A stretch of DNA of 64,000 bases from NCBI GenBank assembly GCA_019695265.1, contig JAIBAJ010000001.1, forward strand, positions 34,347-98,346. The letters run 5' to 3'. Within the stretch, counting starts at the first letter, position 1, and every line of letters starts with the position of its first letter. Positions 3,557-62,528 of this stretch are shown in pieces. Made by a program: the position numbers and the translations under genes. The DNA is from Bacteroidia bacterium. Its GTDB lineage: Bacteria > Bacteroidota > Bacteroidia > JAIBAJ01. The notes below the pieces were generated by a model. That model was not told the DNA's origin and ran no database searches. It saw nothing but the letters and a program-made list of their open reading frames with translations.

Positions 3557-4333
3557 ATGTCAAAAAGACCAACCATATTAGTTACCAATGATGATGGCAT
3601 AACTGCACCTGGAATTCGAGCTTTGGTTGAAGCCATGAAAGAAATTGGAGAGGTAGTGGTAGTTGCGCCGGATAGTCCACAAAGTGCTATGGGTCACGCC
3701 ATTACTATTAGCAAACCTCTTCGATTGTATAAAACCGAAATCCATGGTGAAGTTTTGGGTTACCAATGCAGCGGCACACCGGTCGACTGTGTTAAACTGG
3801 CTGTTAACCAAATTTTACACAAAGCACCCGATTTGTGCGTAAGCGGAATCAATCACGGAAGCAATTCTTCCATCAATATTATTTATTCCGGAACCATGAG
3901 TGCCGCCATGGAAGGAGGAATTGAAGGAATTCCAAGCATTGGCTTTTCTCTCCTGAATTATGCTCACGATGCCGATTTTTCCGCGTCCAAAGAAGTGGCC
4001 AAACGAGTGGTTCAACAGGTCCTAAAAAACGGTATGCCTAAAGACACCTTGCTCAATGTAAACATCCCAAATCTACCTTGGGAGCAAGTAAAAGGCATGA
4101 AAATTTGCAGACAAGCCCGGGCCAAATGGAAAGAAGAATTTGACGAACGAAAAGATCCCACCGGCCGACCTTATTTCTGGCTTACCGGTAAATTTATCAA
4201 TATGGACAAAGGGGAGGATACCGACGAATGGGCCCTCGAAAATGGCTATGTTTCCATTGTTCCAGTTCAGTTTGACCTGACTGCCCACCATGCAGTTTCA
4301 ACACTCAATCAATGGGATTTTGATGAAAAATAA
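3557..4333 (+). CDS. surE: 5'/3'-nucleotidase SurE
   Basis: N-terminus ILVTNDDGITAPGIRAL is the SurE signature. Start taken at ATG 3557 (MSKRPTIL) rather than the upstream ORF-track start. Confidence 0.85.
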   Translation: MSKRPTILVTNDDGITAPGIRALVEAMKEIGEVVVVAPDSPQSAMGHAITISKPLRLYKTEIHGEVLGYQCSGTPVDCVKLAVNQILHKAPDLCVSGINHGSNSSINIIYSGTMSAAMEGGIEGIPSIGFSLLNYAHDADFSASKEVAKRVVQQVLKNGMPKDTLLNVNIPNLPWEQVKGMKICRQARAKWKEEFDERKDPTGRPYFWLTGKFINMDKGEDTDEWALENGYVSIVPVQFDLTAHHAVSTLNQWDFDEK

Positions 4334-4640
4334 ATTCGAGTTTAAACGAGATTCAAAACTAACCGGCTTTATTCTAGGACTTCTGTTTCCGCCGGTTTTC
4401 ATGTTTCTGTATTGGTTGTTCCTTCTGCAAAACAAGGTTCCCGATTTGGTCATTTCCCGATTGTACTACGAAAACCAATTAGCTCCTTTCATTGGATTAG
4501 CCCAAATTGCCAACGCCGGATTGTTTTTCTATTTTATTAAAAAATGGGACGCCGATGAAAGTGGCAAAGGAGTCATTTTTGCCATGCTTTTTTATGGGGC
4601 TATTATTTTGTATTTAAAACTGGATACTATTGGATCTTAG
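4323..4640 (+). CDS. Small hypothetical membrane protein (3 predicted TM helices)
   Basis: ATG at 4323 overlaps the surE stop (4331-4333) and is co-oriented with it. The protein is hydrophobic (LGLLFPPVFMFLYWLFLL...). No recognisable family. Confidence 0.45.
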   Translation: MKNKFEFKRDSKLTGFILGLLFPPVFMFLYWLFLLQNKVPDLVISRLYYENQLAPFIGLAQIANAGLFFYFIKKWDADESGKGVIFAMLFYGAIILYLKLDTIGS

Positions 4641-4855
4641 GACTTTACACAAGGAAACGGGAATATTTGCAGGCTTCACCCGCCGAGGTTTTCGGCCCGA
4701 AATTGGCAACTGAATTAATTTCACCGAAGACAGGCTGCAAGCTCAATTCTACAAGCCTTTTTCTTGTCAATTCTGAATAATTCTCGACTACTTCCTGACA
4801 AGGAATCCTAGAATTTTGAATTATTATTGAATTCTTGGACGGATAAATAGTTTTT

Positions 4856-5010
4856 GGCGGGCCCCCTTCCGCCCAAAAGTTGGTTTCAAATCCGGGAATT
4901 CTGCAAGGGCGTTCGGGTCACGCTATCGGCTGTAGTCCTCGGCCCACTTGGCTAACGCCGCGTGCGCCTGTGGGCTACTTGCCTCTATCGTTGCCCGAGG
5001 TGCGAGTCCA
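4856..5010 (+). repeat. Family-1a dispersed intergenic structured repeat, copy A
   Basis: Begins with the GC hairpin GGCGGGCCCCCTTCCGCC. Core is GGCGTTCGGGTCACGCTATCGGCTGTAGTCC...CTGTGGGCTACTTGCCTCTATCGTTGCCCG. Near-identical cores at 15670-15827 (reverse complement), 23008-23160 and 49010-49170. Confidence 0.85.
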
Positions 5011-5045
5011 ACTTAAGGCAATTTTGAAAAGCTTTTCCTAGGTTT

Positions 5046-5090
5046 AACCCAAATTCCAAACGAAGTTAAACTTCTTTTGGAATTTGGGTT
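5046..5090. terminator. Near-perfect ~21-bp-stem hairpin downstream of the minus-strand giant gene; possible terminator
   Basis: AACCCAAATTCCAAACGAAGTT / AACTTCTTTTGGAATTTGGGTT pairs with one mismatch and almost no loop. It lies 43-87 bp 3' of the stop at 5133. No clear U-tract, so intrinsic-terminator status is uncertain. Confidence 0.4.
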
Positions 5091-5132
5091 AAAATGATCA
5101 TTGAAAGTTTGATTATGCAACCTTCAGGCAAA

Positions 5133-8100
5133 CTACCATTTTGTTTCGCGGTCAAAAACCTCCTTCGAAGCATTTTCACCATTTTTGAAATAGTAAATTC
5201 CACCCCAATTCCATTTCACCTTTTGGTATTCATTCACGTTGGTAGGACCTCTATTCACAATAACCCTAGTAATGGTTTTATTCGCTTCCTGAATAAGATC
5301 TTCCGAAACACCTTCCGGGTATTTTTTATACAACTCGGCCATATAATCGGCCTTGGTCTTTACTTCAGGCGCCGCCGAAACTTGTCCGTTCTTTGCTGAA
5401 TATTCAGCTTCCAATTTAGCTCTTAATTCCTTTTCGATTTGAGCTTGTTTATCCAAGGCGTCTTGCTTTGCCATTTCCTTGGCTTTTTTCTCAAATTCTT
5501 TCTTTGCCTGAAACTCTGATGCTGCCTGCCATTGTTCCTCATTGCGTTTCAAACGATCCTCGTTGCGTTGAGCCTTTTCTTTGGCATCTATTTCTTTATG
5601 CTCTGCAGCCAATCGTGCTGCTTCTTCTTTTCTCTGACGCTCCAGTTCCATTTGCCTTTCCTTCTCAGCCATTTGGGCATTTTTGGCTGAATCTCGTTTA
5701 CTTGTATCGAATGCTAGCTGATCTGCTCTTCGTTTTTGATTTGCTTCCCGTTCCGCAGTAGATTTTTCAATGAAAGTTTGTTTGGCTGCTGCATTTGCTT
5801 CCACTTGCGCATTTCTTGTCGAATCTTTATTTTCTTTTACTTCCTTCCTGTAATCCTGAGTCTTTTGATCAGCTTGAGCCTTAGCTTCCTGGTACTCTTT
5901 CAATTTCCTTTCCTTTTCGGCAGCATTGGCAGCCCTAACTGAATCTCTTATTCTAGCTTCATTAGCCAGTTGATTTTCCCTTTGTTGCTTTTCCATTGCC
6001 TTTTCAGCTTCTGAAATTTCTTTTGACAGTTGCTTTTGGCTATTAAAGGTTTGCAGGGCCGCATTTCTATTGGAATCCCTTTCTGCTTTTTGCTCCTGGC
6101 GGTATTGGTTGGTATTTTGTTTTAGGCTTTCCAATGCAACTTGGTGTTCTTCCTTCTGTCTGGCCTTTTCATTGGCTTGTGCAGTCCGAACGGAATCCTT
6201 TATTCTGGCTTCCCTTGCCAATTGTTCTTCCCTTTGTTGCTTTTCCAAAGCTTTTTCAGCTTCCGATTTCTCTTTAGATATTTGCTTTTGGTTGTTAAAT
6301 GTTTCTACTTGTGCTGTTCGGGTGGCATCCTTTTCACTTTTCTGTTGTTCCCTGTACTGATTGGTAGTTTGTTTTAGATTTTCAAGGTTTTTTTGATGCT
6401 CTAATTGTTGGCGATTCTTCTCATTTGCTTGTGCCGTACGCACCGAATCTTTAATTCTGGTTTCATTGGCCAATTGGTTTTCGCGTTTCAGTTGAAGCTC
6501 GGTTTTAGTTGCCAATGCCTTTTCTTGCGACAATTGCTTATCTGCCTCAAATTCAGTTTTTTGAGCGGTGCGGATGCTATCTTTTAAACTTCTCTGGGTT
6601 TCTCTGTAATTGGCTGTTGTGGCCAGTAATTCTTCCTTTTTACGCTGATATTCAGCCATTCTTGCATCCTTTTCCGATTGGGATTTTAGTTTAGCATTTT
6701 CCCTTTCTGCCATTTCTTCCTCTTTCAATTTGGCATTCTTCTCCTCCTGCATTTTGGTTTCCAATTCTTTACGAATTTTTCGTTCCAACTCAGCCCTTAA
6801 CGCTTCCTCAGCCTTTCTATTCTCTTCCGCGGTGGTACTTTCTACAAAAACCTCATTTTGCAAAGCCGTTCTTTCTTCGTTCGCCTCATCTGCTTTGGCT
6901 TTTTTTGCTTTCTGTTGTTCAAGGAATTGACGTTCCTTTTCCTGTTCTTCTTTTCTTCTGTTTTCTGCTTCTTCTCTGGCTTTTTGAAGAGCAGCCAATC
7001 TTGCTTCTTCTTCTTGTTTTCTTTTTTCTTCAGCTTTAATTTTCCTTGCCTGAGCCTCATCCCAAGCTTGCTGTTGGCGAATCTTCATTTCTTCAGCCGG
7101 GGTAAGTCCGGGGGATGGTTTAGAAATAACCGTTGGACTTGCTAACCTTGTATCACCTTCCTGACTTGCCTTTTGAGCAGCGGCTTCCTTGGCTTGTTGT
7201 TGAGCTTTTAATCTTTTTTCGGCTTCCAAAGCTTTTCGATCAGCTTCTTCCTGAGCAATTTGCCAAGCTTTATCGGCTTGTTCCTTTTCCAACCTTGCTT
7301 TATTCTCTGCGGCTAGTCTTTTATCCTCTTCTTCCTTGGCCTGTGCAGCAGCAATTGCTTTTTTCCGGGCTTCTTCCTGTCTTTTACTTTCCTCTGCTTG
7401 GGCTTGAGCGGCTATCAAAGCTTGTTTTTGGGCTTCTTCCTTAGCCAATTGCTCTGATTTAGCCTTTTCTTGCAACAAAAGTTCAGCTTTTTGAGCATTC
7501 TCTGCTGCCAGGCGCTTATCTTCTTCCTCTTTAGCTTTGGCAGCTTCTATTGCCCGCTTTTTGGCCTCTTCTTTCGCCTTTTGTTCAGCTTCTTTTTGAT
7601 TTTTTGCATCTGCTTCTTCTTTGGCTTTAGCTAGTTGAGCATTTTTTTTCTCCTGTTTAGCCTTTTGCAATGCCTCTTCTTTGGCAGCAGCCTCAAGTTC
7701 AGCTTTGGCTTTTGCCTCAGCAGCCAGTCGCTTTTCCTCTTCGGCTTTAGCTTTAGCAATTGCTTCTGATTTGGCCTTTTCTTCTGAGGCTTTTAAGGCT
7801 GCTTCTGCTTCAGCCTTAGCTTTGGCTTCGGCCGCTAGTCTTTTTACTTCTTCTGCTTGGGCTTTGGCGGCGGCTTCTGCCTTGGCCTTTTCCTCAGCAG
7901 CTTTTTTTGCAGCTTCTGCTTTTGCGGCAGCTTCTGCTTCCGCTTTGGCTTTGGCCTCAGCTTCGGTTTTTGCTTTGGCTTCGGCTGCTAGTCTTTTTTC
8001 TTCCTCTGCTTTGGCTTTGGCAGCGGCTTCTGCCTTGGCCTTTTCTTCCGCGGCTTTTTTTGCAGCTTCTGCTTTGGCAGCTGCTTCTGCATCCGCTTTG

Positions 8101-8906
8101 GCTTTGGCCTCTGCTTCGGCTTTTGCTTTGGCTTCGGCAACTAGTCTTTTTTCTTCATCTGCTTGGGCTTTGGCGGCGGCTTCTGCCTTGGCCTTTTCCT
8201 CAGCAGCTTTTTTTGCAGCTTCTGCTTTGGCAGCTGCTTCTGCCTCCGCTTTAGCTTTAGCCTCTGCATCGGCTTTGGCTTTGGCTTCTGCTGCTAGTCT
8301 TTTTTCTTCCTCTGCTTTTGCCTTTGCAGCTGCTGCTTCTTTTTTCTTTGCCTCTTCCAAAGCCTTTTTTTCGGCTTGAGCCTTGGCTGCAGCTTCGGCT
8401 TCCTTCTTATCTACCTCACTTTCAGCAGCTTTCTCTAGCTCTTCCTGCTTCTTTTGAAATTGCATGCTATAATCCAAGTCGTAGTTAAAATCCTGGGTTT
8501 TATTATCCCAACTAATTTTAGCAACAGGGTTGTTATAAATGGCTACACTTGTATTATCCTGTGGCTTAAACAATTCCACCACAAAAGAAAAGTCTGAAGT
8601 TCGAGCGGTACTATCATCGGGAATATTGGTTATGAATTGCAACTTTTTGGTTACATAACCCTCTTTGGAGAACTCAACAATATATTCAGTATTCAGAGCC
8701 AGCTTGTACAACAACTTCCCTGTTTCGGTGGTGGTAAATTCGTCTTCTACCTTGCCTTTTTCAATGTATTTAACTGTAACACCGGCAAGATTCTTTTTGC
8801 CATCCTTTACAACTCCCTTTATATCCAAACCTTGACCCCATGTTTGTAAGTAAAAGAACAAAAGGAACAAGGATGTTAAGAATTTCAGCCTACGTTTGTG
8901 CTGCAT
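5133..8906 (-). CDS. Giant secreted protein: signal peptide, carboxypeptidase-regulatory-like N-domain, TolA-like Ala/Glu/Lys-rich coiled-coil repeats, globular C-terminal domain
   Basis: 1257 aa. N-terminus MQHKRRLKFLTSLFLLFFYLQTWGQG then DIKGVVKDGKKNLAGVTVKY. About 260 aa of AEAKAKAEAEA..EEKRLAAEAKAK repeats with a 51-aa period, and three ~80-aa repeats (SKEISEAEKAMEKQQRENQLANEARIRDSVR). The C-terminal ~100 aa are non-repetitive. Confidence 0.7.
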   Translation of the reverse strand: MQHKRRLKFLTSLFLLFFYLQTWGQGLDIKGVVKDGKKNLAGVTVKYIEKGKVEDEFTTTETGKLLYKLALNTEYIVEFSKEGYVTKKLQFITNIPDDSTARTSDFSFVVELFKPQDNTSVAIYNNPVAKISWDNKTQDFNYDLDYSMQFQKKQEELEKAAESEVDKKEAEAAAKAQAEKKALEEAKKKEAAAAKAKAEEEKRLAAEAKAKADAEAKAKAEAEAAAKAEAAKKAAEEKAKAEAAAKAQADEEKRLVAEAKAKAEAEAKAKADAEAAAKAEAAKKAAEEKAKAEAAAKAKAEEEKRLAAEAKAKTEAEAKAKAEAEAAAKAEAAKKAAEEKAKAEAAAKAQAEEVKRLAAEAKAKAEAEAALKASEEKAKSEAIAKAKAEEEKRLAAEAKAKAELEAAAKEEALQKAKQEKKNAQLAKAKEEADAKNQKEAEQKAKEEAKKRAIEAAKAKEEEDKRLAAENAQKAELLLQEKAKSEQLAKEEAQKQALIAAQAQAEESKRQEEARKKAIAAAQAKEEEDKRLAAENKARLEKEQADKAWQIAQEEADRKALEAEKRLKAQQQAKEAAAQKASQEGDTRLASPTVISKPSPGLTPAEEMKIRQQQAWDEAQARKIKAEEKRKQEEEARLAALQKAREEAENRRKEEQEKERQFLEQQKAKKAKADEANEERTALQNEVFVESTTAEENRKAEEALRAELERKIRKELETKMQEEKNAKLKEEEMAERENAKLKSQSEKDARMAEYQRKKEELLATTANYRETQRSLKDSIRTAQKTEFEADKQLSQEKALATKTELQLKRENQLANETRIKDSVRTAQANEKNRQQLEHQKNLENLKQTTNQYREQQKSEKDATRTAQVETFNNQKQISKEKSEAEKALEKQQREEQLAREARIKDSVRTAQANEKARQKEEHQVALESLKQNTNQYRQEQKAERDSNRNAALQTFNSQKQLSKEISEAEKAMEKQQRENQLANEARIRDSVRAANAAEKERKLKEYQEAKAQADQKTQDYRKEVKENKDSTRNAQVEANAAAKQTFIEKSTAEREANQKRRADQLAFDTSKRDSAKNAQMAEKERQMELERQRKEEAARLAAEHKEIDAKEKAQRNEDRLKRNEEQWQAASEFQAKKEFEKKAKEMAKQDALDKQAQIEKELRAKLEAEYSAKNGQVSAAPEVKTKADYMAELYKKYPEGVSEDLIQEANKTITRVIVNRGPTNVNEYQKVKWNWGGIYYFKNGENASKEVFDRETKW
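5930..6650. repeat. Three tandem copies of a ~240-bp repeat inside the giant CDS (encode ~80-aa repeats)
   Basis: Nucleotide segments starting near 5941, 6181 and 6421 are highly similar, e.g. ...ttctggcttcccttgccaattgttcttccctttgttgcttttcca... recurs. Confidence 0.7.
7690..8340. repeat. About four near-identical tandem copies of a 153-bp repeat inside the giant CDS (encode 51-aa AEK repeats)
   Basis: gctttggcRgcggcttctgccttggccttttcYtcMgc... recurs at about 7861, 8011, 8161 and 8311 with very few substitutions. Confidence 0.8.
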
Positions 8907-15445: not shown

Positions 15446-15460
15446 TTTTTTGTTTCCTTT

Positions 15461-15610
15461 GGCGGGTCCCATTCGCAGAAATTTTGTGCCTTTTTCGAAG
15501 TATTTCCGGGCTCATGGTCGGGCTTTCGGCGTTACTCCTCGGCCCACTTGCTAGCGCCGCGTGGTCCTGTGGGGTAACTGCCTCTATCCCTACCCGACGG
15601 TACCCCTGAG
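15461..15610 (+). repeat. Family-1 (1b-like) intergenic structured repeat, copy B1
   Basis: GGCGGGTCCCATTCGC...ATGGTCGGGCTTTCGGCGTTACTCCTCGGCCCAC...CTGTGGGGTAACTGCCTCTATCCCTACCCG. It shares its 5' and 3' modules with the interrupted copy at 31530-31771. Confidence 0.8.
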
Positions 15611-15669
15611 CTTGGTAAACTTTAACCCACTTCAGGAACTTGAAATGTTCTATCCAAAATAGTCCTATT

Positions 15670-15827
15670 GGGGCTTGCACCCTCGGGCAACGATAGAGGC
15701 AAGTAGCCCACAGGACACCTACGGCTTTAGCCTAGGTGGACGAGGACTACAGCCGAAAGCGTGACCCGAACGCCAATGCATTTATGATGGGGATTTGCAA
15801 AAAGCCAGGATGGCGGAGGGGGCCCGC
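15670..15827 (-). repeat. Family-1a repeat, copy B2, in inverted orientation to B1
   Basis: Its reverse complement matches copies A, C and F almost base for base (GGCGTTCGGGTCACGCTTTCGGCTGTAGTCCTCGTCCACCTAGGCTAAAGCCGTAGG...CTACTTGCCTCTATCGTTGCCC). It ends with GGCGGAGGGGGCCCGC. Confidence 0.85.
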
Positions 15828-15863
15828 ATAAAAACCAACTTAATCTTCAAAAAACCAACCGAA

Positions 15864-22944: not shown

Positions 22945-23007
22945 TTCTACCTAAAGATTGCCAAAAAGTCAAATGACGAATCGGCTAGATTTTAAAATAC
23001 GTTTTAT

Positions 23008-23160
23008 GCGGGCCCCCTCCGCCTTACCCTAACTTTGCTAAACCCCAAAATGCTTGCATGGGCGTTCGGGTCACGCTTTCGGCTGTAGTCCAAGCCCACT
23101 CCGCTAAACGCTGCGTTGGCTTGGAGCTACTTGCCTCTATCGTTGCCCGATGCGAAACCT
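23008..23160 (+). repeat. Family-1a repeat, copy C
   Basis: GCGGGCCCCCTCCGCC...GGCGTTCGGGTCACGCTTTCGGCTGTAGTCCAAGCCCACTCCGCTAAACGCTGCGTTGGCTTGGAGCTACTTGCCTCTATCGTTGCCCG. The central stem shows compensatory substitutions relative to the other copies. Confidence 0.85.
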
Positions 23161-23460
23161 CAACCGGTAGTTTCTAACCCAACTTGTCTTTGTAACACCA
23201 ATGTTATTTAAACCCAAAATTCTGCATTAGAAATCGTGATGAGGCTTTCAAATACAACAAAGACAGGGGCTTCAAGGTAATTTTTGGGTAAAGAAATAGT
23301 GAACTATTTTGAAAATCACAGTGGTAACTGCCGATGCAAACACTGTTTAGGCAATATATTTCAAAGTATCCATGCACTAATCCGGATTTACAAACAGTTC
23401 AAGTGCCTAAAAGAGCAAAGAGTCGCTAGGCTTAATTTAATCCCGGAAGCAAACTTCCCA

Positions 23461-23553: not shown

Positions 23554-26367
23554 CTATAAATCCGGGATATCGAACGTCCATTGTGCGTAGAACATTCTTC
23601 CAATGTAAGGACCACCATAAATTTCTTTGTGAAGGTTGTTTAGGATATTGGAAGCGCCCAAACGAATGGTAGAAAAGTATTTTGGAAACTCATAATTCAC
23701 TTGAACATCAACTAAATTATAGGCGGCAACTTGTCCATCGCCAAATGAAGATTGCCACAAATAAGTATCAACCCATTGCCAATTCACGCCAAAGCCAAAG
23801 TTCTTAATCACCTTTCTTCCTTTAATTCCTGCATTTACTTTATGTTTAGCGGTATTAAAACCAGGCAAAATTGGATCGGTTAATTTGCTATCGTCCAAAC
23901 TTGCAAAGGTATAGTTGGCTGAAAACACATATTTATTAGTAAGGTAGTAAGCCAAACCAATAGAACCGCCGTAGGTCATCACATCTTGGTCGGCATTCAC
24001 AGCGATTTGGTATACCTGATAAGTTTTATTTGCTGAAGTATTGGTTAAAATGGCATCAACACCGCTTTCTTCTCCGGCAACTGCTCCATGCAAAGGCTCA
24101 ACCACTCGAATATTTCCGATAAATCCTCTGTATCGACTAACGTAACCGCTCAAATCAACATACAATCGTTTAAACCAAATTCCTCGGTATCCGGCTTCCA
24201 CTGTTTGAATTTGTTCAGGACGCAAAGGTTTCAACTGTATTGGTTGAAGCAAACTTGGCTGAATGGAGCCTATATAGTTTCCATTGGCATCGGTAGAATC
24301 GTATTGAGCTTGAAATGCTTTCACCGATTCAAGGGTATAGAGGTTGTTATATCCATTCAAATTCCCCGGCAAATAGATAGGACCCAAATCCAAACCTATG
24401 TATTGATTTTGGAGGGTTGGCATCCGGAAAGCTTGTTGTGCACTAACTCGGAAAACATGACCGGATTTGGTAGTCCACATAATGGCAAACCTTGGAGAAA
24501 ACTGCGGTTTAAAATTGGTATTTTTATCTACCCTTCCGGAAGCCATTAATTTCAATTTCTTATCAAAAAAGCTCTTACTTAATTGTAAAAATGCCCCATA
24601 TTCATAGTTATTTATCCGGGTAAATTTGGCTTTGGTATCCGGAGCTCCATCAGGTAAGGTATCGGCCGAATTAATTAAAGTATCAGTAAAAATGGTACCG
24701 TAGCTTTGGGGTCCATAGCGTCTGAAGGAACCGCCTACCATAGCTTCCATAAAATTAATTGGAAGGCTGTATTGCAAATCAAGGTGTTGGATGGAAGAAT
24801 TATCAATGAATTTGGAGCCTTTTTGCAAATTGCCGCTGCTAACAATGGAATTTCTTAAGGTTTCGAATTCGGAGGTTCCGGGTTGGTAGAAAGCTTCTTG
24901 GTAAGCAACTTGGGTGGCATAAGCAGTAGCTTTCTCTACATCTTCCACACTGGCATTATCATCGAAATCGTTGGTTAGAGGGCGCAAGGTATCAACATAA
25001 GCAGAGATATACTTAGACACCCAACGTTTGATTCCTTCTTTTGATAAATTTATTCCGGTAAAAACGATATCGTAGGAATCTCCTGCATTTTCGAAAGTGG
25101 TATAAGCTCTTACCAGTAAGCGTTTACTTTGAAATTCGATCTTATGTTGTTGGAAAAGAATGTTATTAATGCTGTAACGGTTTGTACCTTGATAAATCGC
25201 TGTTCCATTACCTAGCTTATAATCATAACTCAGTATCATATCAGGCTTAATTTTATAGGATAAATTCACTCCTACCTTAATACTGTTCACATTGGTTTTT
25301 GCCAGATCGGTTTCCATATAGCCAGGGGTTCGAATTTCTCGTTGATTTAGGCCTTGATAAGTAACCGGATTAAAATTCAGGTAATTGTTCAATGCAATAA
25401 AATCCTGAACTTCCTGTGGGGTGTTATTGATGGTGTCGTATTGTTGCTTTTCGAGAATGGAAGCCAGGTTTTGGGTAACATTTAGTTTACCATATTTATT
25501 GACAGTGGTATCGGTAGCTCTCCAGTCGTCTGCTCTCATGAAGGAACCGGTTACTTTAAATGCAAATTTTTTGTTTTTGCCAATAACCTTTGCATATCTG
25601 AATTGACCTTCAGCCATGTTTCTGCTTCCACCTTTTAGTTGTAGAGAAAGCCCTTGGTAATCGAATGGGCTTTTAGTTTTCATACTCACTACTCCTTGCA
25701 TTGCATTAGGGCCATATAGTGCTGATGCCGGACCTGTGATTACCTCTACACTTTGCAAATCGAGGTCATTAGCACCAACCAGGTTACCGATTGCGAAATT
25801 TAAGCCTGGAGCCTGGTTATCCATACCATCCACCATTTGAACCACCCTAACCGGTGCAGAAGTATTAAATCCGCGCATATTAATTGCCTTAAATCCCATG
25901 GATGATGTAGCTATATCAACTCCCTGAATATTGGAAAGTCCTTGGTAGAAATCGCCTGAAGTTACCTCCTTAATTTCCTTTTCGTTCATTTTATGAATCG
26001 ATACCGGAGCCTGAAGGATGGTTTCACTTAACCTGGAAGAAGTTACCACCACCTCTTTGCCTGGAATAATAGCCATTTCCATCTCAATGGTAAGTGCTTT
26101 ACCCGGTCCGGAAACCGGTACTTCAAGTTTCTCATATCCAATATAAGAAACTTGCAAAACCACAGGTTTGGAAAAATCCAATTCCAAAGCAAAAGAACCA
26201 TTAGCTTCGGTAGTGGTGCCTATTGCAGCACCTTTGACCAGGATAGTCGCTCCAATTAAGGGTTCTTTCGTTTTTTTATCGGTAACATAACCGGTAACCT
26301 TGCCTTTTTGTGCAAATGCAAAAAGGGTAATAAAGCCAAAAATAAGGCTAAGTAGAAGTTTTCTCAT
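23554..26367 (-). CDS. TonB-dependent receptor with N-terminal carboxypeptidase-regulatory-like domain
   Basis: 937 aa. Signal peptide, then a CarbopepD_reg-like region (KGKVTGYVTDKKTKEPLIGATILVKG), a plug domain and a long beta-barrel region. Confidence 0.8.
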   Translation of the reverse strand: MRKLLLSLIFGFITLFAFAQKGKVTGYVTDKKTKEPLIGATILVKGAAIGTTTEANGSFALELDFSKPVVLQVSYIGYEKLEVPVSGPGKALTIEMEMAIIPGKEVVVTSSRLSETILQAPVSIHKMNEKEIKEVTSGDFYQGLSNIQGVDIATSSMGFKAINMRGFNTSAPVRVVQMVDGMDNQAPGLNFAIGNLVGANDLDLQSVEVITGPASALYGPNAMQGVVSMKTKSPFDYQGLSLQLKGGSRNMAEGQFRYAKVIGKNKKFAFKVTGSFMRADDWRATDTTVNKYGKLNVTQNLASILEKQQYDTINNTPQEVQDFIALNNYLNFNPVTYQGLNQREIRTPGYMETDLAKTNVNSIKVGVNLSYKIKPDMILSYDYKLGNGTAIYQGTNRYSINNILFQQHKIEFQSKRLLVRAYTTFENAGDSYDIVFTGINLSKEGIKRWVSKYISAYVDTLRPLTNDFDDNASVEDVEKATAYATQVAYQEAFYQPGTSEFETLRNSIVSSGNLQKGSKFIDNSSIQHLDLQYSLPINFMEAMVGGSFRRYGPQSYGTIFTDTLINSADTLPDGAPDTKAKFTRINNYEYGAFLQLSKSFFDKKLKLMASGRVDKNTNFKPQFSPRFAIMWTTKSGHVFRVSAQQAFRMPTLQNQYIGLDLGPIYLPGNLNGYNNLYTLESVKAFQAQYDSTDANGNYIGSIQPSLLQPIQLKPLRPEQIQTVEAGYRGIWFKRLYVDLSGYVSRYRGFIGNIRVVEPLHGAVAGEESGVDAILTNTSANKTYQVYQIAVNADQDVMTYGGSIGLAYYLTNKYVFSANYTFASLDDSKLTDPILPGFNTAKHKVNAGIKGRKVIKNFGFGVNWQWVDTYLWQSSFGDGQVAAYNLVDVQVNYEFPKYFSTIRLGASNILNNLHKEIYGGPYIGRMFYAQWTFDIPDL

Positions 26368-40791: not shown

Positions 40792-42345
40792 CTAATCTTG
40801 CAATAAAATACGACCTTGGGACAGTAAGGAATTATTATTCATGATTCGGTAGGAATACATACCGGCAGGTAATTCCTTTTTTGCAAACAAATAAGTGCTT
40901 CCTTGAATATCAGTGATATGCTTAACAAGTTGTCCATTGGTATTGTAAATCAGCAATTCTCCATTTTGACATGGGTTATTAAATTGAAAATGAACCTGGT
41001 TATTGCTTGGATTAGGGAAGGATTGAACGGAGGAATTAGTTGTAGTTTCTGCTAAACCGACCGGTGAACCAATGGTATTATGGTATCGGGCAATAGCAAA
41101 ATAATTTTGAGAATTATAAGCTGCACCAGCCAACAGAATTTTACCATCCTGTTGCAAGGCAAGGGAATAACCAACGGCATCCCCTATTCCTTCAAAATCA
41201 GTGGTAACTTTTCCGTCTGCATCAAACGTTGTATCCAAACTTCCGTCCATTTGGTACTTCGCTAAAGCAAAATAGATATCGCTTCCGATGCTATGGTATC
41301 CACCGACCAAAACTTTGCCATCTATCTGAACAATTAAATCCACCGGGGCACCATAATCATTTACTGTACCCCAATCGGTATAAACCACACCACTGTTTCC
41401 CCAGCTTAAATCCAGGTTTCCGTCCGAATTTATTCGAATAATGATAAAATCATAATAGCTATTGTCTATGTATCCTGCCAATAGAATTTTCCCATCCGGC
41501 TGAACATCCAATGCATAACCATATTCATTGAAAGAACCAAATATTCCGGCAGTTACAATACCGTCGCCATCAAAGGTATTGTCAAGACTGCCATCAGTAT
41601 TGTATCTGGCAATTAAAAAATTAGCATTCGTATTATCAAAGCTAAAACCGCCTACCAGTATTTTCCCGTCAGACTGCAATTTAACCGAATAACCATAATC
41701 GTCTAAGTTTGCCGACACCGGAGTAACAACAATTCCATCGGTACTAAAGGTATTGTCTAAACTTCCATCTGCATTTAAACGAACCATAATTAAATCATTG
41801 TTTCCTGAGCCGGAACTTCCACCTGTTAGTACGATTTTTCCATCGCCTTGTAATACCAAAGATTCAACCCTTTGGTTAGGATTACCGGGCACAATGGCAG
41901 CCGCATTTGTTCCAAAACTTAGATCTGGTTCACCTGTTGGAAGCAACCTAACAACCATCATCAAATCTCCAAGTCCATCGTTGGTGAATCCGCCGACCAA
42001 AATTTTTCCATCCGGTTGAACGGCTAAACAATTGGCTCTGTCTTCATTGGTGTTAATTCCAAAGGTGGTATAACCATAAACACTGAATGAAGAATCAATA
42101 CTACCATCCTCCAAAAACTGCATTACAGCAAAATCATACGAATTCGCAGTATAGGAATGTCCGGCAATAAGGATTTTGCCATTGTCAAGGGCAACAATTC
42201 CTTTGGCTGCATCATCAAAGGTTCCAATGGATGCCATTACTTTTCCATCGGTATCAAAACTCAAATCCAGGGAACCATCCTGAGCAAAACAGGGCAAACT
42301 GAAACCCATTCCAATAGCGATTAGTGCTGAATAAATTTTTTCCAT
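40792..42345 (-). CDS. Delta-60-repeat beta-propeller protein with T9SS C-terminal sorting domain
   Basis: Signal peptide. About 8 repeats of the DGSLDxTF..DGKV/I..G motif. The C-terminal ~80 aa (SFPNPSNNQVHF...AGMYSY..) resemble the T9SS C-terminal domain. Confidence 0.7.
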   Translation of the reverse strand: MEKIYSALIAIGMGFSLPCFAQDGSLDLSFDTDGKVMASIGTFDDAAKGIVALDNGKILIAGHSYTANSYDFAVMQFLEDGSIDSSFSVYGYTTFGINTNEDRANCLAVQPDGKILVGGFTNDGLGDLMMVVRLLPTGEPDLSFGTNAAAIVPGNPNQRVESLVLQGDGKIVLTGGSSGSGNNDLIMVRLNADGSLDNTFSTDGIVVTPVSANLDDYGYSVKLQSDGKILVGGFSFDNTNANFLIARYNTDGSLDNTFDGDGIVTAGIFGSFNEYGYALDVQPDGKILLAGYIDNSYYDFIIIRINSDGNLDLSWGNSGVVYTDWGTVNDYGAPVDLIVQIDGKVLVGGYHSIGSDIYFALAKYQMDGSLDTTFDADGKVTTDFEGIGDAVGYSLALQQDGKILLAGAAYNSQNYFAIARYHNTIGSPVGLAETTTNSSVQSFPNPSNNQVHFQFNNPCQNGELLIYNTNGQLVKHITDIQGSTYLFAKKELPAGMYSYRIMNNNSLLSQGRILLQD

Positions 42346-44358: not shown

Positions 44359-46011
44359 CTATTCCAGGATTACTCGCTGATGATACAGCTTTTCGCCCAT
44401 TTGAATTTTCACCATGTAGCAACCGGGCGATGAGGAATTAAGGGTAAGCGGCAGGGCAAGCTGTCCATACGCTTTTTCTAGCTGAGCGACCTTCTTCCCT
44501 TGCAAATCATAAACCTCGACACTTGCTTCGGAACGGGACTTAAAATCAATTTGATAATAACCGTTGCCGGGATTGGGGTAAACAATAAACGGGGTGGCGT
44601 CGATTATAGGAGAATTGATACCATTATACAAAATACATGTATCTGACAACGAATTCCTATTTTCAATAATTCCTTGCGAAACCAAGGCATGTCCGGCAAA
44701 ACCCGGAAAATCGGAAGGGTACAAAATGGAACTAAACAATTGGTTAAGCGTGGGGGTAGAATCTTGTTCCAGTATTCCGATTTTAGCATCGGGATTTACA
44801 TAAGCCCAGTACTGATTTCCGAGGGTATCAATTTCAAAAAAACGACCGGCAGCACCATCCGTAACAAACACATGGCCATTGGGCAACATTTGGGCACTTC
44901 CAACATTAATCGAATACCAATTTTTTTCATTGTTCCGGTTGTAAACCCAACTTTGATTGGCCGGCAAATAGGGCAATGTTTGATCATAATTATAACCTAA
45001 AACCGGAGGATTGATAATCTCAACCGTGGAAAAGGGCGTACCCGGATGCCCCAAGCCATTGTTAAAAACCATGATTTGATTTTCAAATGGCAAACCCGGC
45101 TTTATCCAATGTGCATTGTGTTGCCCATAAAATACTGAACTGGTTCCATGCCCATAAGAAGCCGGATTTCCCCAACGGTATAGCAAGTCTCCCCCCTTGC
45201 CTGAATTTCCTCCAACATGTCCGGCGGCTTCTTCGGTGGTTGTACTTTTGTCTATTATCCAAATCTCATTAAAAGCATGCACACTAACCATTATTTGATT
45301 CAAAACCGGATTGTAATCAATGGAATTTAAATGGATCCAATCCGAATTAGAAGCAAATGCCTTAAAATTGATATCCACCAAGTGAGGATTGTCTGCCACA
45401 ACCCCAAAATTGGGCTTAGTATTATCAAAATCCTGTATTAAATGATCCCACAGCTTCCATTCCCATACAATATTTGCCTCATTGGTGCCAACCGGCTGTA
45501 TCTCCATAATTTTCTCGCTAAATAAGGTTTGAGCACATTGCGATGGATTTCTTCCTCGCGCCATTGCTTGTGGTTTGGTTTTCAAATCCCAGGCAAACAA
45601 TAAAATATTTCCATTCTCCAAAGGCAAAATATCATGGTGCTGGCATTGCAACGAATCCGAAATTGTGTAGGACCACAAAACATTTCCATTCCAATCCTGC
45701 TTATGAATCACTCCTCCTCTGCCTCCGGCCACAAAATTGGTATTGGTCAATGAACCGGTAACATAAAGAAATCCATCCTGACCTAAATATCCCGACAATC
45801 CGGGATTATTAGGAATATCCCATGATTTACCCACACTTCCACAATGATCAACCAAATAAGTTTTGTGTGAAGCAACCGGACTAAAGATAAAATATCCATC
45901 CTGAAAACTTCCCGGATCATTCTGAATCAAACCCACAGTATTTTGTGATTGACCCCTGAAGTCTATACCAAAAACAAACAGCAGAATGGCTACTAAAGTT
46001 AAATTACGCAT
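44359..46011 (-). CDS. Arylsulfotransferase-like beta-propeller protein with T9SS C-terminal sorting domain
   Basis: Signal peptide. The HHDILPLENGNILLF and EIWIIDKSTTTEEAAGHVGG...LLYRWGNPASY segments resemble the ASST family. The C-terminal ~90 aa are T9SS-like (VYPNPGNGYYQI...CYMVKI). Confidence 0.5.
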   Translation of the reverse strand: MRNLTLVAILLFVFGIDFRGQSQNTVGLIQNDPGSFQDGYFIFSPVASHKTYLVDHCGSVGKSWDIPNNPGLSGYLGQDGFLYVTGSLTNTNFVAGGRGGVIHKQDWNGNVLWSYTISDSLQCQHHDILPLENGNILLFAWDLKTKPQAMARGRNPSQCAQTLFSEKIMEIQPVGTNEANIVWEWKLWDHLIQDFDNTKPNFGVVADNPHLVDINFKAFASNSDWIHLNSIDYNPVLNQIMVSVHAFNEIWIIDKSTTTEEAAGHVGGNSGKGGDLLYRWGNPASYGHGTSSVFYGQHNAHWIKPGLPFENQIMVFNNGLGHPGTPFSTVEIINPPVLGYNYDQTLPYLPANQSWVYNRNNEKNWYSINVGSAQMLPNGHVFVTDGAAGRFFEIDTLGNQYWAYVNPDAKIGILEQDSTPTLNQLFSSILYPSDFPGFAGHALVSQGIIENRNSLSDTCILYNGINSPIIDATPFIVYPNPGNGYYQIDFKSRSEASVEVYDLQGKKVAQLEKAYGQLALPLTLNSSSPGCYMVKIQMGEKLYHQRVILE

Positions 46012-46202
46012 ACTATTTTCAAATTTTAAACCTCCCGAAGAAGGTATGGCAAAAGGCAAAAATAGAAAACACCTAGTAATATGCTCTACTTCAAAGCTTT
46101 ATTTTAACTCGCATCACCTTCCCATACGGAAACCTTCCGAAAAAAAGACAACTTCCTGCACTCCACTTTCAATCAAGCGATGGAAGATTTACCTACTCAA
46201 AA

Positions 46203-48876: not shown

Positions 48877-49009
48877 ATTTCACAAAAGTAGCTAGAACTA
48901 ACTTTGAAACACTAATTCATCGCAATTCTTTTGGTTTTTTAAGGTTTCCTCCCCACCATTTCCGCACTTGCTGTCTTATTTTGTCAAAATTTTTTAGGTT
49001 TTTTATTTA

Positions 49010-49170
49010 GGCGGGCCCCCTTCCGCCAACCACCCTTCTTGCCAAATTTTCAAGGCTAAGCACATGGCGTTCGGGTCACGCTATCGGCTGTAGTCCTCGT
49101 CCCCCTAGGCTAAAGCCGTAGTGGGCCTGTGGGCTACTTGCCTCTATCGTTGCCCGGGCACTCCGAACCT
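49010..49170 (+). repeat. Family-1a repeat, copy F
   Basis: GGCGGGCCCCCTTCCGCC...GGCGTTCGGGTCACGCTATCGGCTGTAGTCCTCGTCCCCCTAGGCTAAAGCCGTAGTGGGCCTGTGGGCTACTTGCCTCTATCGTTGCCCG. Confidence 0.85.
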
Positions 49171-49242
49171 GGCTCCTGCAAGCCTCTAAGCTTTTACCTC
49201 TTCCACTAACTACCAACCGTTGAAATCTTTACCCAACCCGGC

Positions 49243-59084: not shown

Positions 59085-59186
59085 AAAACTTGAACTGAAA
59101 TTTTACTCCTGCTTTGTACAAATCCTTTCACGAAAGCGAAACCAAACTATTCCCTGTTTCCTTCATTATTTCTATCTTTGCCCCTA

Positions 59187-62100
59187 ATGGAAACTACCGT
59201 TTACCAACCCCAACATAAAATCCGTATTGTTACTGCGGCATCTTTGTTTGATGGCCACGATGCAGCAATTAACATTATGCGCAGAATTATCCAAAGTAGT
59301 GGAGCTGAAGTGATACACCTGGGCCACGATCGTTCGGTGAAAGAAATTGTTGATTGCGCTATTCAGGAAGATGTGCAGGCGATTGCTATTACCAGTTATC
59401 AAGGCGGACACGTTGAATTTTTCAAATACATGTACGACCTCTTGCAAGAACGAGGTGCCGGACAAATTAAAATCTTTGGAGGTGGTGGTGGCACCATACT
59501 TCCAACCGAAATTGAAGAACTGCATCGTTACGGAATTACCCGAATTTACTCACCCGACGACGGACGTTCGCTAGGCTTGCAGGGAATGATTAACGATTTG
59601 CTTAAAACCTGCGATTTCCCAACCGGTTTTAACCTAAACGGGGAAGTAAAACACCTGGCAGAAAAGGATATTAAATCCATCGCTAAACTTATTTCAGCAG
59701 CCGAAAACAACCACAATGAATTTGACCAAGTTTTCAAAGCCGGAACCGATAAAAAAGTTGCCGTATTAGGAATTACTGGTACCGGTGGAGCCGGAAAATC
59801 TTCATTGGTAGATGAATTGGTAAGACGTTATTTGCTCGATTTCAAGGATAAAACCATTGCCATTATTTCGGTGGATCCCTCGAAACGAAAAACAGGTGGA
59901 GCACTACTGGGAGACCGAATCCGGATGAATGCCATTAACAACGACCGGGTTTATATGCGTTCCCTGGCAACCCGTCAAAGTAATCTGGCCCTTTCAAAAT
60001 ATGTAAAAGATGCCGTTGAAATTGTGAAGGCCGCCGGTTTTGACTTGGTGGTACTTGAAACATCAGGAATTGGTCAAAGTGATACTGAAATTCTAGAACA
60101 TAGCGACGTGTCATTGTACGTTATGACTCCCGAATATGGTGCTGCTACCCAACTTGAAAAGATTGATATGTTGGACTTTGCCGATGTAATTGCTTTAAAC
60201 AAATTCGACAAACGCGGCGCCCTGGATGCCCTGCGCGACGTGAAAAAGCAATATAAACGTAACCACCAGCTCTGGGAAACCCCCGACGACGATTTGCCGG
60301 TTTTTGGAACCATTGCTTCCCAATTTAACGACCCGGGAATGAATCGTTTGTATGTGGCTATTATGCAAACCATTGCGAAAAAAACCGGTCTTAATTTCCC
60401 TTCCAACTTCCACATCACCAACGAGATGTCGGAAAAAGTGTATATCATCCCCCCCAGCAGAACCCGTTACCTCAGCGAAATTTCAGAAACAAATCGAAAC
60501 TACGACCAATGGGTAAAGGATCAAGTAGAAATTCAACACCAGCTTGAAGGTTTGGAAACCGCCCAAAAATTAGTACATTCTGCTGAAGCCAAACTAGCCC
60601 TCGATCAAGCTTTTGAAGCACTTTCCCGACAATTCGACCCCCAAAATAAACACCTCATTGACGAACTGCCTAAAAAGATTGAAAACTACCGCAATGAATT
60701 TTTTGTCTTTAAGGTTAGAGACAAAGAATTAAAGGTAAAAACCCATTCAGAAAGTTTATCTCACCTTCAAATACCAAAGGTTGCTACACCAAAATTCCGC
60801 TCCAAAGCCGATCAATTGAATTGGGTTTTGCAAGAGAATTTCCCTGGCGAATTTCCTTATACTGCCGGGGTTTTCCCCTTTAAACGTGAAGGAGAAGACC
60901 CTACCCGAATGTTTGCCGGTGAAGGTGGACCAGAACGAACCAATAAACGTTTCCATTATGTTTCCAAAGGTCTTCCTGCCAAACGACTTTCAACGGCTTT
61001 TGATTCGGTTACTTTGTATGGGCAAGATCCGGACTACCGCCCGGACATCTACGGAAAAATAGGCAATTCCGGGGTTTCCATTTGCTGCCTCGATGATGCA
61101 AAAAAACTTTACTCCGGCTTCAACCTGGCCGACCCCCGAACCTCTGTTTCCATGACCATCAATGGTCCGGCTGCCATTCTTACTGCCTATTTTATGAATG
61201 CTGCCATTGACCAACAATGCGAAATTTATATCAGGCAAAATGGATTAGAGCAAGAAGTTGAAGCTACCATACAAGCCATTTACCAAGGCAAACCCAGACC
61301 AAAATACCAAGGCGAAATTCCGGATGGCAATGATGGACTAGGTTTGATGTTACTAGGTGTTACCGGCGACCAGGTTTTACCAAAAGAAGTTTATGAAAAA
61401 ATAAAAATCGATACCCTGGCCGCTGTTCGGGGCACCGTTCAAGCTGACATTCTAAAAGAAGATCAGGCACAAAATACCTGCATTTTCAGTACTGAATTTT
61501 CGCTTCGGGTAATGGGTGACGTACAGGATTATTTTATCCGAAACAACGTTAGAAACTTCTATTCCGTTAGTATTTCAGGTTACCACATTGCCGAAGCCGG
61601 AGCCAACCCTATTTCCCAATTGGCCTTTACCTTGGCCAATGGATTTACCTACGTTGAATACTACCTCAGCCGAGGTATGGATGTAAACAAATTCGCTCCC
61701 AACCTTTCCTTCTTTTTCAGCAATGGAATCGATCCTGAATACTCCGTTATCGGAAGGGTAGCACGCCGTATTTGGGCAAAAGCTATGAAATTGAAATACA
61801 AGGCAAACGAGCGCAGCCAAATGTTGAAATACCACATCCAAACCAGCGGCCGCAGTCTGCATGCTCAAGAAATCGATTTTAACGACATCCGAACCACCTT
61901 GCAAGCCTTGTATGCCATTTACGACAACTGTAACTCCTTGCATACCAATGCCTACGATGAAGCCATTACCACCCCTACCGAAGCTTCCGTTCGTCGCGCC
62001 ATGGCCATTCAGTTGATTATAAACCGGGAATTGGGATTGGCAAAAAATGAAAATCCGTTGCAGGGTTCCTTTATTATTGAAGAGTTAACCGATCTAGTAG

Positions 62101-62528
62101 AAGAGGCAGTGTTAGCCGAATTCGATCGGATTACCGAACGCGGTGGTGTACTCGGCGCTATGGAAACCATGTACCAGCGCGGCAAAATTCAGGAGGAATC
62201 CTTGTACTATGAAACCCTGAAACATACAGGAGAATTTCCCATCATCGGAGTAAACACGTTTTTATCTTCTCAAGGTTCGCCAACCATCATTCCAAACGAG
62301 GTTATCCGTGCCACCGAAGAGGAGAAAAAATACCAAATTTCAATGCTGGAAAATCTTCACCAAATGCAGGCTATTCAAGCAAAACAAGGATTGGAAAGTT
62401 TGCAAAAAACAGCCGTTCAAAACCAAAATATTTTCGAAAACCTCATGGAAACCGCTAAATATTGTTCCCTTGGACAAATTACACAGAGCCTATTTCAGGT
62501 TGGTGGACAATACCGTCGAAATATGTAA
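59187..62528 (+). CDS. icmF: Fused isobutyryl-CoA mutase (B12-binding domain + MeaB-like GTPase + acyl-CoA mutase catalytic domain)
   Basis: The N-terminus has the B12 DxHxxG motif ([12 protein letters not shown]), the middle has the MeaB P-loop [17 protein letters not shown], and the C-terminal ~550 aa are a methylmalonyl-CoA-mutase-like TIM barrel. The ~1100-aa length matches IcmF. Start taken at ATG 59187. Confidence 0.85.

Follow-up and report, generated by a model that had tools for sequence, protein, structure and literature searches.

A long exported protein with a repetitive helical rod from an uncultured Bacteroidia bacterium belongs to an unnamed Bacteroidota family

The gene described here lies on the minus strand at 5133-8906 of the window, which is the whole stretch of 64,000 nucleotides that was analysed from an uncultured Bacteroidia bacterium, and encodes a protein of 1257 amino acids (aa). 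This protein is a genuine, unusually long member of a large unnamed family of exported proteins in Bacteroidota, and its domain combination fits no characterised family. From its N-terminus it consists of a signal peptide, a beta-sandwich N-domain, a helical rod of ~1000 aa and an alpha/beta C-domain of 83 aa; the two end domains are constrained while the rod is plastic. We consider the chance about even that it is a Sec-exported tether or spacer of the cell envelope, with a two-ended architecture and a length that evolves by gain and loss of repeats. An earlier note on this DNA had the anatomy broadly right, while its DNA-level claims and its TolA and phase-variation readings are largely unsupported. 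Nothing in the protein is mechanistically surprising; the family and its C-domain are uncharacterised, and from the observations below we infer the cellular location, the partners and the function as a spacer.

Architecture and family of the protein

The open reading frame (ORF) is uninterrupted over 3.77 kb, as the earlier note had read it, and plus-strand ORFs of 95-232 aa across the same interval are by-products of its biased composition. The protein contains 255 Ala (20%), 212 Glu (17%), 199 Lys (16%) and 102 Gln (8%) residues, and no Cys was found in the composition count. The gene and its parts are as follows:

5133-8906, minus strand: complete gene, 1257 codons plus stop (ATG at 8906-8904, stop at 5135-5133), based on the ORF list, the translation and end domains conserved in syntenic orthologues
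8835-8906, minus strand: predicted Sec/signal peptidase I (SPI) signal peptide, aa 1-24 (MQHKRRLKFLTSLFLLFFYLQTWG, followed by Q), read from its pattern
8442-8834, minus strand: N-domain, aa 25-155, a transthyretin/CarboxypepD_reg-like beta-sandwich with a conserved beta-hairpin junction, proposed from sub-threshold Pfam matches and a homologue model
7647-8441, minus strand: Ala/Glu/Lys-rich first part of the rod, aa 156-420, from the composition profile (up to 49% Ala, 49% charged and 2-10% hydrophobic residues)
7851-8309, minus strand: three full tandem 153-bp (51-aa) units, aa 200-352, at 8157-8309, 8004-8156 and 7851-8003, from Tandem Repeats Finder (TRF) and a repeat search
7740-7850, minus strand: truncated fourth unit of 37 aa (aa 353-389), with an intact unit start and an internal 14-aa deletion, reported by TRF as a 111-bp period at 7698-7921
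7098-7157, minus strand: sole Pro/Gly-containing break in the rod, aa 584-603 (GDTRLASPTVISKPSPGLTP), from the positions of Pro and Gly
5619-6626, minus strand: four diverged tandem 252-bp (84-aa) units, aa 761-1096, from register and pairwise identities
5136-5384, minus strand: C-domain, aa 1175-1257 (83 aa), a helix, a five-strand antiparallel sheet and a helix

The predicted signal peptide is composed of KRRLK, a hydrophobic core of 12-13 residues and TWG, with QG directly after the predicted cleavage point, so placing a predicted Gln at the mature N-terminus. A small residue followed by Gln occurs right after the hydrophobic core in 54 of 60 full-length family members, which matches the Q-rule for SPI substrates in Bacteroidetes (PMC5837995). 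The sequence of the hydrophobic segment is not conserved across the family, which suits a signal peptide that is cleaved off better than a functional anchor. These patterns support export, as the earlier note had proposed. No sorting domain of the type IX secretion system (T9SS; Por_Secre_tail PF18962, CHU_C PF13585) was found at E <= 1 in the whole protein or its C-terminal 155 aa, and two positive controls for such tails were recovered within the window (44359-46059, E 1.7e-11; 40792-42345, E 1.3e-8). A lipobox is also absent, because the protein contains no Cys. The location is most probably periplasmic or outer-membrane-associated, and the surface location suggested previously is unsupported.

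According to Pfam, the N-domain resembles CarboxypepD_reg (PF13620) and SdrD_B (PF17210) below threshold, at 16.7-21 bits versus cut-offs of ~30-32 (16.7-20.7 bits versus a gathering threshold of 32.3 for PF13620); the relatives P0036, P0095 and P0136 score 30.4-31.6 bits for PF13620, also under the cut-off. The fold test was made on the homologue P0005, whose N- and C-regions are 43% identical to the window protein. Its AlphaFold2 (AF2) model has strands at 37-153 with a predicted local distance difference test score (pLDDT) of ~90 in the N-domain, and Foldseek matched it (E 1e-4 to 1e-2) to teneurin CarboxypepD_reg, SdrD B, transthyretin/5-hydroxyisourate hydrolase and the N-terminal extension (NTE) of SusC (6ytc). 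Judging from this homologue, the N-domain is predicted to be a seven-strand prealbumin-like beta-sandwich, in agreement with the carboxypeptidase-regulatory-like domain named in the earlier note. It is joined to the rod by the junction motif NPVAKI..DFNYDLDY..FQK, which is invariant or nearly so across the family. A CarboxypepD_reg-like N-terminal module is also carried by the TonB-dependent receptor of the window at 23554-26367.

The rod extends over about aa 156-1174 (~1018 aa) and has neither Pro nor Gly over aa 155-583 and 604-1173. The break between these segments is not conserved; the rod of the orthologue at locus L001 has one Gly, and those of loci L003-L007 have no Pro or Gly. Middle regions of the protein are of low complexity, as noted before, and extremely rich in Ala, Glu, Lys and Gln, with 45-49% Ala and 49% charged residues at aa 197-343. 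Opposite-charge i/i+4 pairs number 0.2-0.33 per residue in the Ala/Glu/Lys-rich part (aa 148-540) and 0.04-0.10 in the 84-aa repeat region, and the AF2 model of P0005 has continuous helices across its Ala/Glu/Lys linker (pLDDT ~80-93). An SAH domain would show dense Glu-Lys/Arg pairs at i/i+4 in a monomeric helix that lacks a hydrophobic seam. A canonical coiled coil would have heptad periodicity and ~25-30% apolar core positions. The hydrophobic fraction along the whole rod is 0.02-0.18, and a home-made Fourier test on five rod segments gave no dominant peak at 3.5 residues, with Ala-based packing still possible. The coiled coil of the earlier note is not confirmed by these values; the rod is certainly helix-prone, and resembles TolA domain II or a single alpha-helix (SAH) rather than a canonical heptad coiled coil.

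The C-domain contains EYQKVKWNWGGIYYF and corresponds to the non-repetitive C-terminal domain seen previously, with the family signature YP.G..E....K.ITRV......EY.KV.[WH].WGG.YYF. Structure prediction with a 23-sequence alignment gave an AF2 model of mean pLDDT 88.9, with one helix before and one after a five-strand antiparallel sheet. Neither Pfam nor NCBIfam matched the domain at E <= 1, PHROGs gave no match, PDB searches with phmmer and hmmsearch returned nothing, and the fold search with the model gave no significant PDB match, which supports the earlier view that the domain combination is not assignable to a known family. A hint of peptidoglycan binding through LysM, raised by the helix before the C-domain of P0005 (Pfam, 19.1 versus 20.9 bits), was rejected, being sub-threshold and only partly covering the model, with a different fold in the window C-domain model. 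With PHROGs giving no match, there is also no sign that the protein comes from a phage tail or tape measure.

Searches of 5.8 billion proteins with the single N- or C-domain returned one short fragment each, and the size of the family is visible only with profiles. A profile of both domains retrieved 35 proteins, mostly of 286-470 aa and with both end domains present, including those of the cultured Marinilabiliaceae Saccharicrinis carchari and Carboxylicivirga mesophila. The C-domain profile gave 1072 matches at E <= 1e-3 (306 at <= 1e-10) among 1.84 billion representatives, always at or near the C-terminus, and all sources that name a taxon are Bacteroidota. No relative was found by scanning metagenome contigs with the combined profile, and a search for the motif EYQKVKW gave no true match. 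The window protein carries both family motifs, NPVAKI..DF[DN]YD.DY and the terminal ITRV...EY.KV.[WH].WGG.YYF, which are near-invariant in three family alignments. The 60 recognisably full-length members have a median length of 407 aa; six reach at least 900 aa, four at least 1200 aa, and the longest 2282 aa. Their linkers, of ~115-2050 aa, fall into four classes, namely Ala/Glu/Lys-rich helix, Pro-rich (with TonB-like EKPEPKP runs), short polar, and arrays resembling tetratricopeptide repeats (TPR) with 57-aa repeats. In the source databases they are named 'hypothetical protein', 'tetratricopeptide repeat protein', 'PEGA domain-containing' and once 'cell envelope integrity protein TolA'.

Seven loci with the same architecture came from a scan of GTDB species genomes with a degenerate pattern, all of them in metagenome-assembled genomes (MAGs) of uncultured Bacteroidia or Flavobacteriales. 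L001 is a complete MAG chromosome of 4.43 Mb with a 1146-aa orthologue at the syntenic position, and L003-L007 carry orthologues of 909-911 aa. The global alignment with the L001 protein gave 71% identity over 1116 aligned positions, distributed unevenly: the C-domain is 92% identical, the helical 'neck' at aa 1097-1174 82%, the N-domain 80% and aa 601-760 70%, and the Ala/Glu/Lys part of the rod only 48-60%, with many indels (60%, again with many indels, for its first part at aa 156-420). Neighbouring housekeeping proteins are 71-92% identical between the two genomes.

Repeats and the history of rod length

The 153-bp units form an array that TRF reported at 7804-8317, with 3.4 copies, 90% matches and a score of 846, far beyond chance. 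Motif EEKRLAAEAKAK starts at aa 200, 251, 302, 353 and 390, the EEKRLAAEAK motif is spaced by 51, 51, 51 and 37 residues, and degenerate Ala/Glu/Lys sequence flanks the units on either side. The 51-aa repeat of the earlier note is real, although its ~5 copies are only three full units, one unit of 37 aa and the degenerate flanks, and the supposed handful of substitutions is in fact 12-14 of 153 nt for each pair of full units (90.8-92.2% identity). Codon differences between the units are 8-9 synonymous-only and 3-5 non-synonymous per pair, and the longest exact run common to them is 71 nt (units 1 and 3).

Each unit of the second array is composed of two 42-aa halves with a common KDS[IV]RTAQ motif, and the units share 42-67% DNA identity and 36-63% protein identity. 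The array went undetected by TRF over the gene. Three near-identical repeats of ~80 aa (240 bp) had been described here; the period is 252 bp, and the copies are four and far from identical. Compared with L001, the window protein has one more unit (the gap corresponds to aa 899-982), as expected if repeat counts differ between species, and the remaining units align one-to-one; the array therefore predates the split of the two lineages and has changed by a single unit. Ancient, diverged repeats were what the earlier note had named as speaking against a recent expansion; they are what was found in this array, and recent expansion is refuted there.

For the 153-bp array the outcome is different. 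Its units are 91-92% alike internally and at most 74% identical to any stretch of the L001 gene longer than 110 nt, so their triplication or homogenisation is younger than the split from this closest available relative, and to that extent the proposed recent expansion stands. The L001 gene has its own arrays with periods of 66, 135 and 174 bp and 71-77% matches. With 8-9% divergence and a synonymous excess, the 153-bp expansion is nevertheless not recent in the sense of a contingency locus.

The genes of the sister clade L003-L007 have almost no detectable tandem DNA repeats. Their proteins, from five sister species, are 84-96% identical; no more than 3 columns of their alignment have gaps, and the rod of ~740 aa is free of Pro and Gly. 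Elsewhere in the family, clusters at 90% identity are mostly of equal length (1050 aa in 5 of 5 listed members of one, 408 aa in 9 of 11 of another). Rod length shifts between lineages and is held constant within them, and is not hypervariable. Size- or phase-variable surface proteins are expected to have repeats at least ~95-100% identical and copy-number differences between strains; the 153-bp units at 90.8-92.2% and the 252-bp units at 42-67% fall short of this, the relatives compared being other species. Phase variation is not indicated either, since all units are multiples of 3 nt and 8-9% diverged, and length in the sister clade varies within 2 residues. For the earlier suggestion that recent expansion implies phase or size variation, the outcome is mostly deflationary.

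The longest and most repeat-rich form seen in the family is that of P0079 (2282 aa) and P0184/P0185, whose linker is built of dozens of near-identical 57-aa TPR-like repeats, with 34 YPx motifs counted, and whose cluster includes one member 9 aa shorter. Recent repeat expansion is more plausible for this form than for the window protein.

Possible function and its alternatives

Two conserved, unlike ends joined by a freely varying spacer, with length conserved within clades, are as expected of a tether or strut, and the conservation of 909-911 aa in the sister species argues that length is selected rather than random. According to such a model, the protein would be exported by Sec and cleaved by SPI, exposing an N-terminal Gln and presenting the beta-sandwich first; the two end domains would each have their own binding partner in the envelope, with the spacing or mechanical coupling of these partners determined by the rod. 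In-frame tandem duplication and deletion of the 51-aa and 84-aa units built and resized the rod. Typical family linkers of ~115-290 aa would measure ~17-45 nm if helical, comparable to the width of the periplasm and to the TolA and TonB spacers. The Ala-rich helical TolA-II and the Pro-rich TonB-II are known periplasm-spanning spacers (bioRxiv 10.1101/2024.11.27.625625), and these two spacer chemistries both recur among the linkers of the family.

Several points weigh against the tether or spacer. As one continuous helix, 1018 aa at 0.15 nm each would reach ~150 nm, versus a periplasm of ~25-30 nm, so that a simple perpendicular, periplasm-spanning model cannot hold for the 1257-aa giant, whose rod must lie in-plane, bundle, oligomerise or be extracellular. 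The C-domain is without a structural or sequence relative of known function, and its binding role is for that reason a guess. The cleavage of the signal peptide is read from sequence pattern only. The gene neighbourhood is uninformative, as none of the five contexts (lineages) examined is conserved between lineages.

A more far-reaching version, which we regard as possible but rather doubtful, holds that the family is an unrecognised class of envelope 'ruler' or tether in Bacteroidota, soluble, with two binding heads at a genetically set separation, and that the WGG-YYF C-domain is a new fold family. Lineages might then retune the ruler by gaining or losing repeats, or by exchanging one spacer chemistry for another (Ala/Glu/Lys helix, Pro-rich, TPR solenoid), and it could serve for distance control as TolA-II, TonB-II or Lpp-type systems do, though lacking a membrane anchor. 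Lineages with the giants of 900-2300 aa, the window protein among them, would then have an unusual envelope geometry or in-plane scaffolds in the periplasm.

The resemblance of aa 156-420 to TolA domain II in composition raises the idea that the protein serves this organism as TolA, or as an energy transducer of the TolA/TonB type, with an inner-membrane anchor, an Ala-rich domain II across the periplasm and a C-domain that reaches outer-membrane partners. The NCBIfam model tolA_full also scores 24.4 bits on the P0005 linker, under its cut-off of 59.45, and one record of the Prokaryotic Genome Annotation Pipeline is the source of the TolA name, given to a 408-aa member. This reading is largely refuted and must be regarded as extremely improbable. 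No TolA or TonB model matches the window protein even at E <= 1, and a beta-sandwich is present where TolA has none. The hydrophobic segment is short, unconserved and followed by the conserved small-residue/Q motif, with no Ser/His motif and no His, and the gene neighbours are SurE, a 116-aa ORF, a flavin adenine dinucleotide (FAD) oxidoreductase and an MMPL/RND transporter, not tolQRB-pal. The long helical rod of tandem repeats would also suit a fibrillar surface adhesin or antigen similar to M protein or Alp, in which repeats give rapid size or phase variation; unequal exchange through RecA could make use of the exact runs of up to 71 nt, copy number varies between species, and the short-read contigs of the relatives P0001 and P0002 (~0.9 kb) end at rod boundaries. 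We find such an adhesin improbable, as the protein has no lipobox Cys and no T9SS sorting domain, though two other window proteins have clear ones; its 153-bp units, 8-9% diverged with a synonymous excess, have long been kept apart, and its 252-bp units are 33-58% diverged. With all units in frame, on/off switching is impossible, and the constant 909-911 aa in five sister species and the mostly equal lengths of same-cluster members speak against rapid size change.

The same broken contigs, together with a 153-bp repeat close to short-read length, could mean that the assembly misrepresents the rod, or the number of its repeats, through collapse or expansion of near-identical repeats. We judge this very unlikely, because the 12-14 distinguishing substitutions per unit pair make the units resolvable, the frame is intact over 3.77 kb, the 1146-aa orthologue of the complete-chromosome MAG is colinear and occupies the same syntenic position, and rods of ~740-2050 aa recur in independent assemblies. 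At aa 584-603, close to its midpoint, the rod has its single Pro/Gly-rich break and might there fold back into an antiparallel hairpin or a helical bundle, so that the N- and C-domains would form one composite head as in SMC or Rad50, and the AF2 model of P0005 has helices of 94 and 108 aa with a low-confidence break between them. This arrangement has little probability in our view, and was down-weighted for the unconserved hinge. The arms are also unequal (429 versus 570 aa), the predicted template modelling score of the P0005 model is 0.43, which makes relative domain placement unreliable, the fold matches are not significant, and a stable two-helix seam would need more hydrophobic residues than the rod has.

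If the tether or spacer proves true, the family would be a widespread unnamed envelope component of Bacteroidota, with more than 1000 clusters at 50% identity, and its linker series of ~115-2050 aa would be a natural experiment matching spacer length to envelope architecture. Its signature C-domain has no Pfam model and no solved relative. Automated annotation sometimes labels members 'TolA' or 'TPR protein' on composition alone, and short-read assemblies tend to break inside the rod, leaving the family under-represented as full-length sequences.

Surroundings of the gene and known systems

The flanks of the gene are syntenic in L001 at ~74% nucleotide identity, with the FAD oxidoreductase and MMPL transporter on one side and SurE, a phosphoesterase and aminopeptidase P on the other. 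The 116-aa ORF (4290-4640, plus strand) overlaps the 3' end of surE and has no Pfam match; it is conserved with 63% identity at the syntenic L001 position and is therefore probably a real small gene. In the Marinilabiliaceae loci L008 (3599-4747) and L011 (3577-4734), the gene of another CarboxypepD_reg protein, of ~385 aa, is followed by that of a Usp-domain protein and then by that of a short family member; no other sign of neighbours conserved locally was seen, and this one does not extend beyond that lineage. A further feature of the window, found by sequence and self-match, lies ~40 nt past the stop codon of the gene:

5043-5093, minus strand: long perfect hairpin with a 15-bp core, AACCCAAATTCCAAA/TTTGGAATTTGGGTT

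The RNA fold of 5030-5132 has -35.8 kcal/mol (z = -6.0), and the hairpin resembles a terminator, yet it has no U-tract on either strand. Rfam gave only chance-level matches to miRNA-precursor models for this hairpin, and a scan for sigma-70 promoter and terminator consensus found no more sites than in shuffled sequence.

A dispersed intergenic element of ~170 nt was observed at 4840-5015, 22990-23170, 49000-49175, 15660-15845 (minus strand) and 15450-15615, and at 2880-3050 of L001; the window thus has at least five copies, and the related MAG has one. Its GC content is 0.60-0.66 versus ~0.40 for the genome, its copies are 74-92% identical over 83-168 aligned nt, and it starts with a GGCGGGCCCCCTCCGCC hairpin. 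RNAalifold gave a consensus of 30 pairs, 5 of them with compensatory changes, and no Rfam family matches the element, which could be similar to repetitive extragenic palindromic (REP) sequences or miniature inverted-repeat transposable elements (MITE), or a multicopy small RNA.

The two Por_Secre_tail proteins that served as positive controls, both encoded on the minus strand, are T9SS cargo proteins, a DUF5122 beta-propeller protein and an arylsulfotransferase-like protein, and from their presence the organism has a T9SS. At 59178-62528 (plus strand) lies a 1116-aa fusion of a B12-binding domain, a MeaB-like GTPase and a methylmalonyl-CoA mutase catalytic domain, whose domain order resembles the IcmF type.

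Among known systems, the NTE of SusC-like transporters (PDB 6ytc) belongs to the same class of beta-sandwich fold, and it too forms the mature N-terminus of Sec-exported Bacteroidota proteins. Unlike SusC NTE and CarboxypepD_reg modules, the window N-domain is sub-threshold in Pfam and is followed by the NPVAKI..DFDYD.DY hairpin and the rod, not by plug and barrel. Streptococcal M protein and the Alp family share with it a signal peptide, a long helical rod and in-frame tandem repeats whose number varies between lineages. However, the window protein has neither a surface-anchoring signal nor heptad periodicity and comes from a Gram-negative Bacteroidota host, its repeats are 8-58% diverged instead of near-identical, and length is conserved in its sister clade.

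TolA of E. coli (NCBIfam TIGR02794) is anchored by its domain I, an uncleaved transmembrane helix in which conserved Ser and His engage the TolQR (or ExbBD) motor. The window protein lacks this anchor motif, judged by pattern, and a cleavable signal peptide is predicted instead; it has an additional beta-sandwich N-domain, no tolQRB-pal context, and a C-domain unrelated by sequence and fold to TolA-III or TonB-C. The likeness to TolA lies in the domain II region, as both have an Ala/Glu/Lys-rich, helix-prone repetitive spacer and a small globular C-terminal domain, although the window rod is 4-5 times longer. The 'TolA-like' label of the earlier note holds for the composition of part of the rod, and fails for the C-domain, the conserved membrane anchor and the tol operon. 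TonB is resembled by those family members that have a Pro-rich spacer.

SAH (ER/K) linkers differ from the window rod, whose Ala content of up to 49% is far higher, whose 84-aa region has few i/i+4 pairs, which is exported and bacterial, and for which the SAH state is only a possibility. De novo SAH helices of 98 residues have been made (PMC5347031), and no SAH domain in the papers found comes near the ~1000 aa of the window rod. In common with the window rod, SAH linkers such as myosin lever extensions are charged, hydrophobic-poor helices with dense i/i+4 acid-base pairs, which bridge two functional domains and whose length is tuned by repeat number (PMC4183817, PMC5378345).

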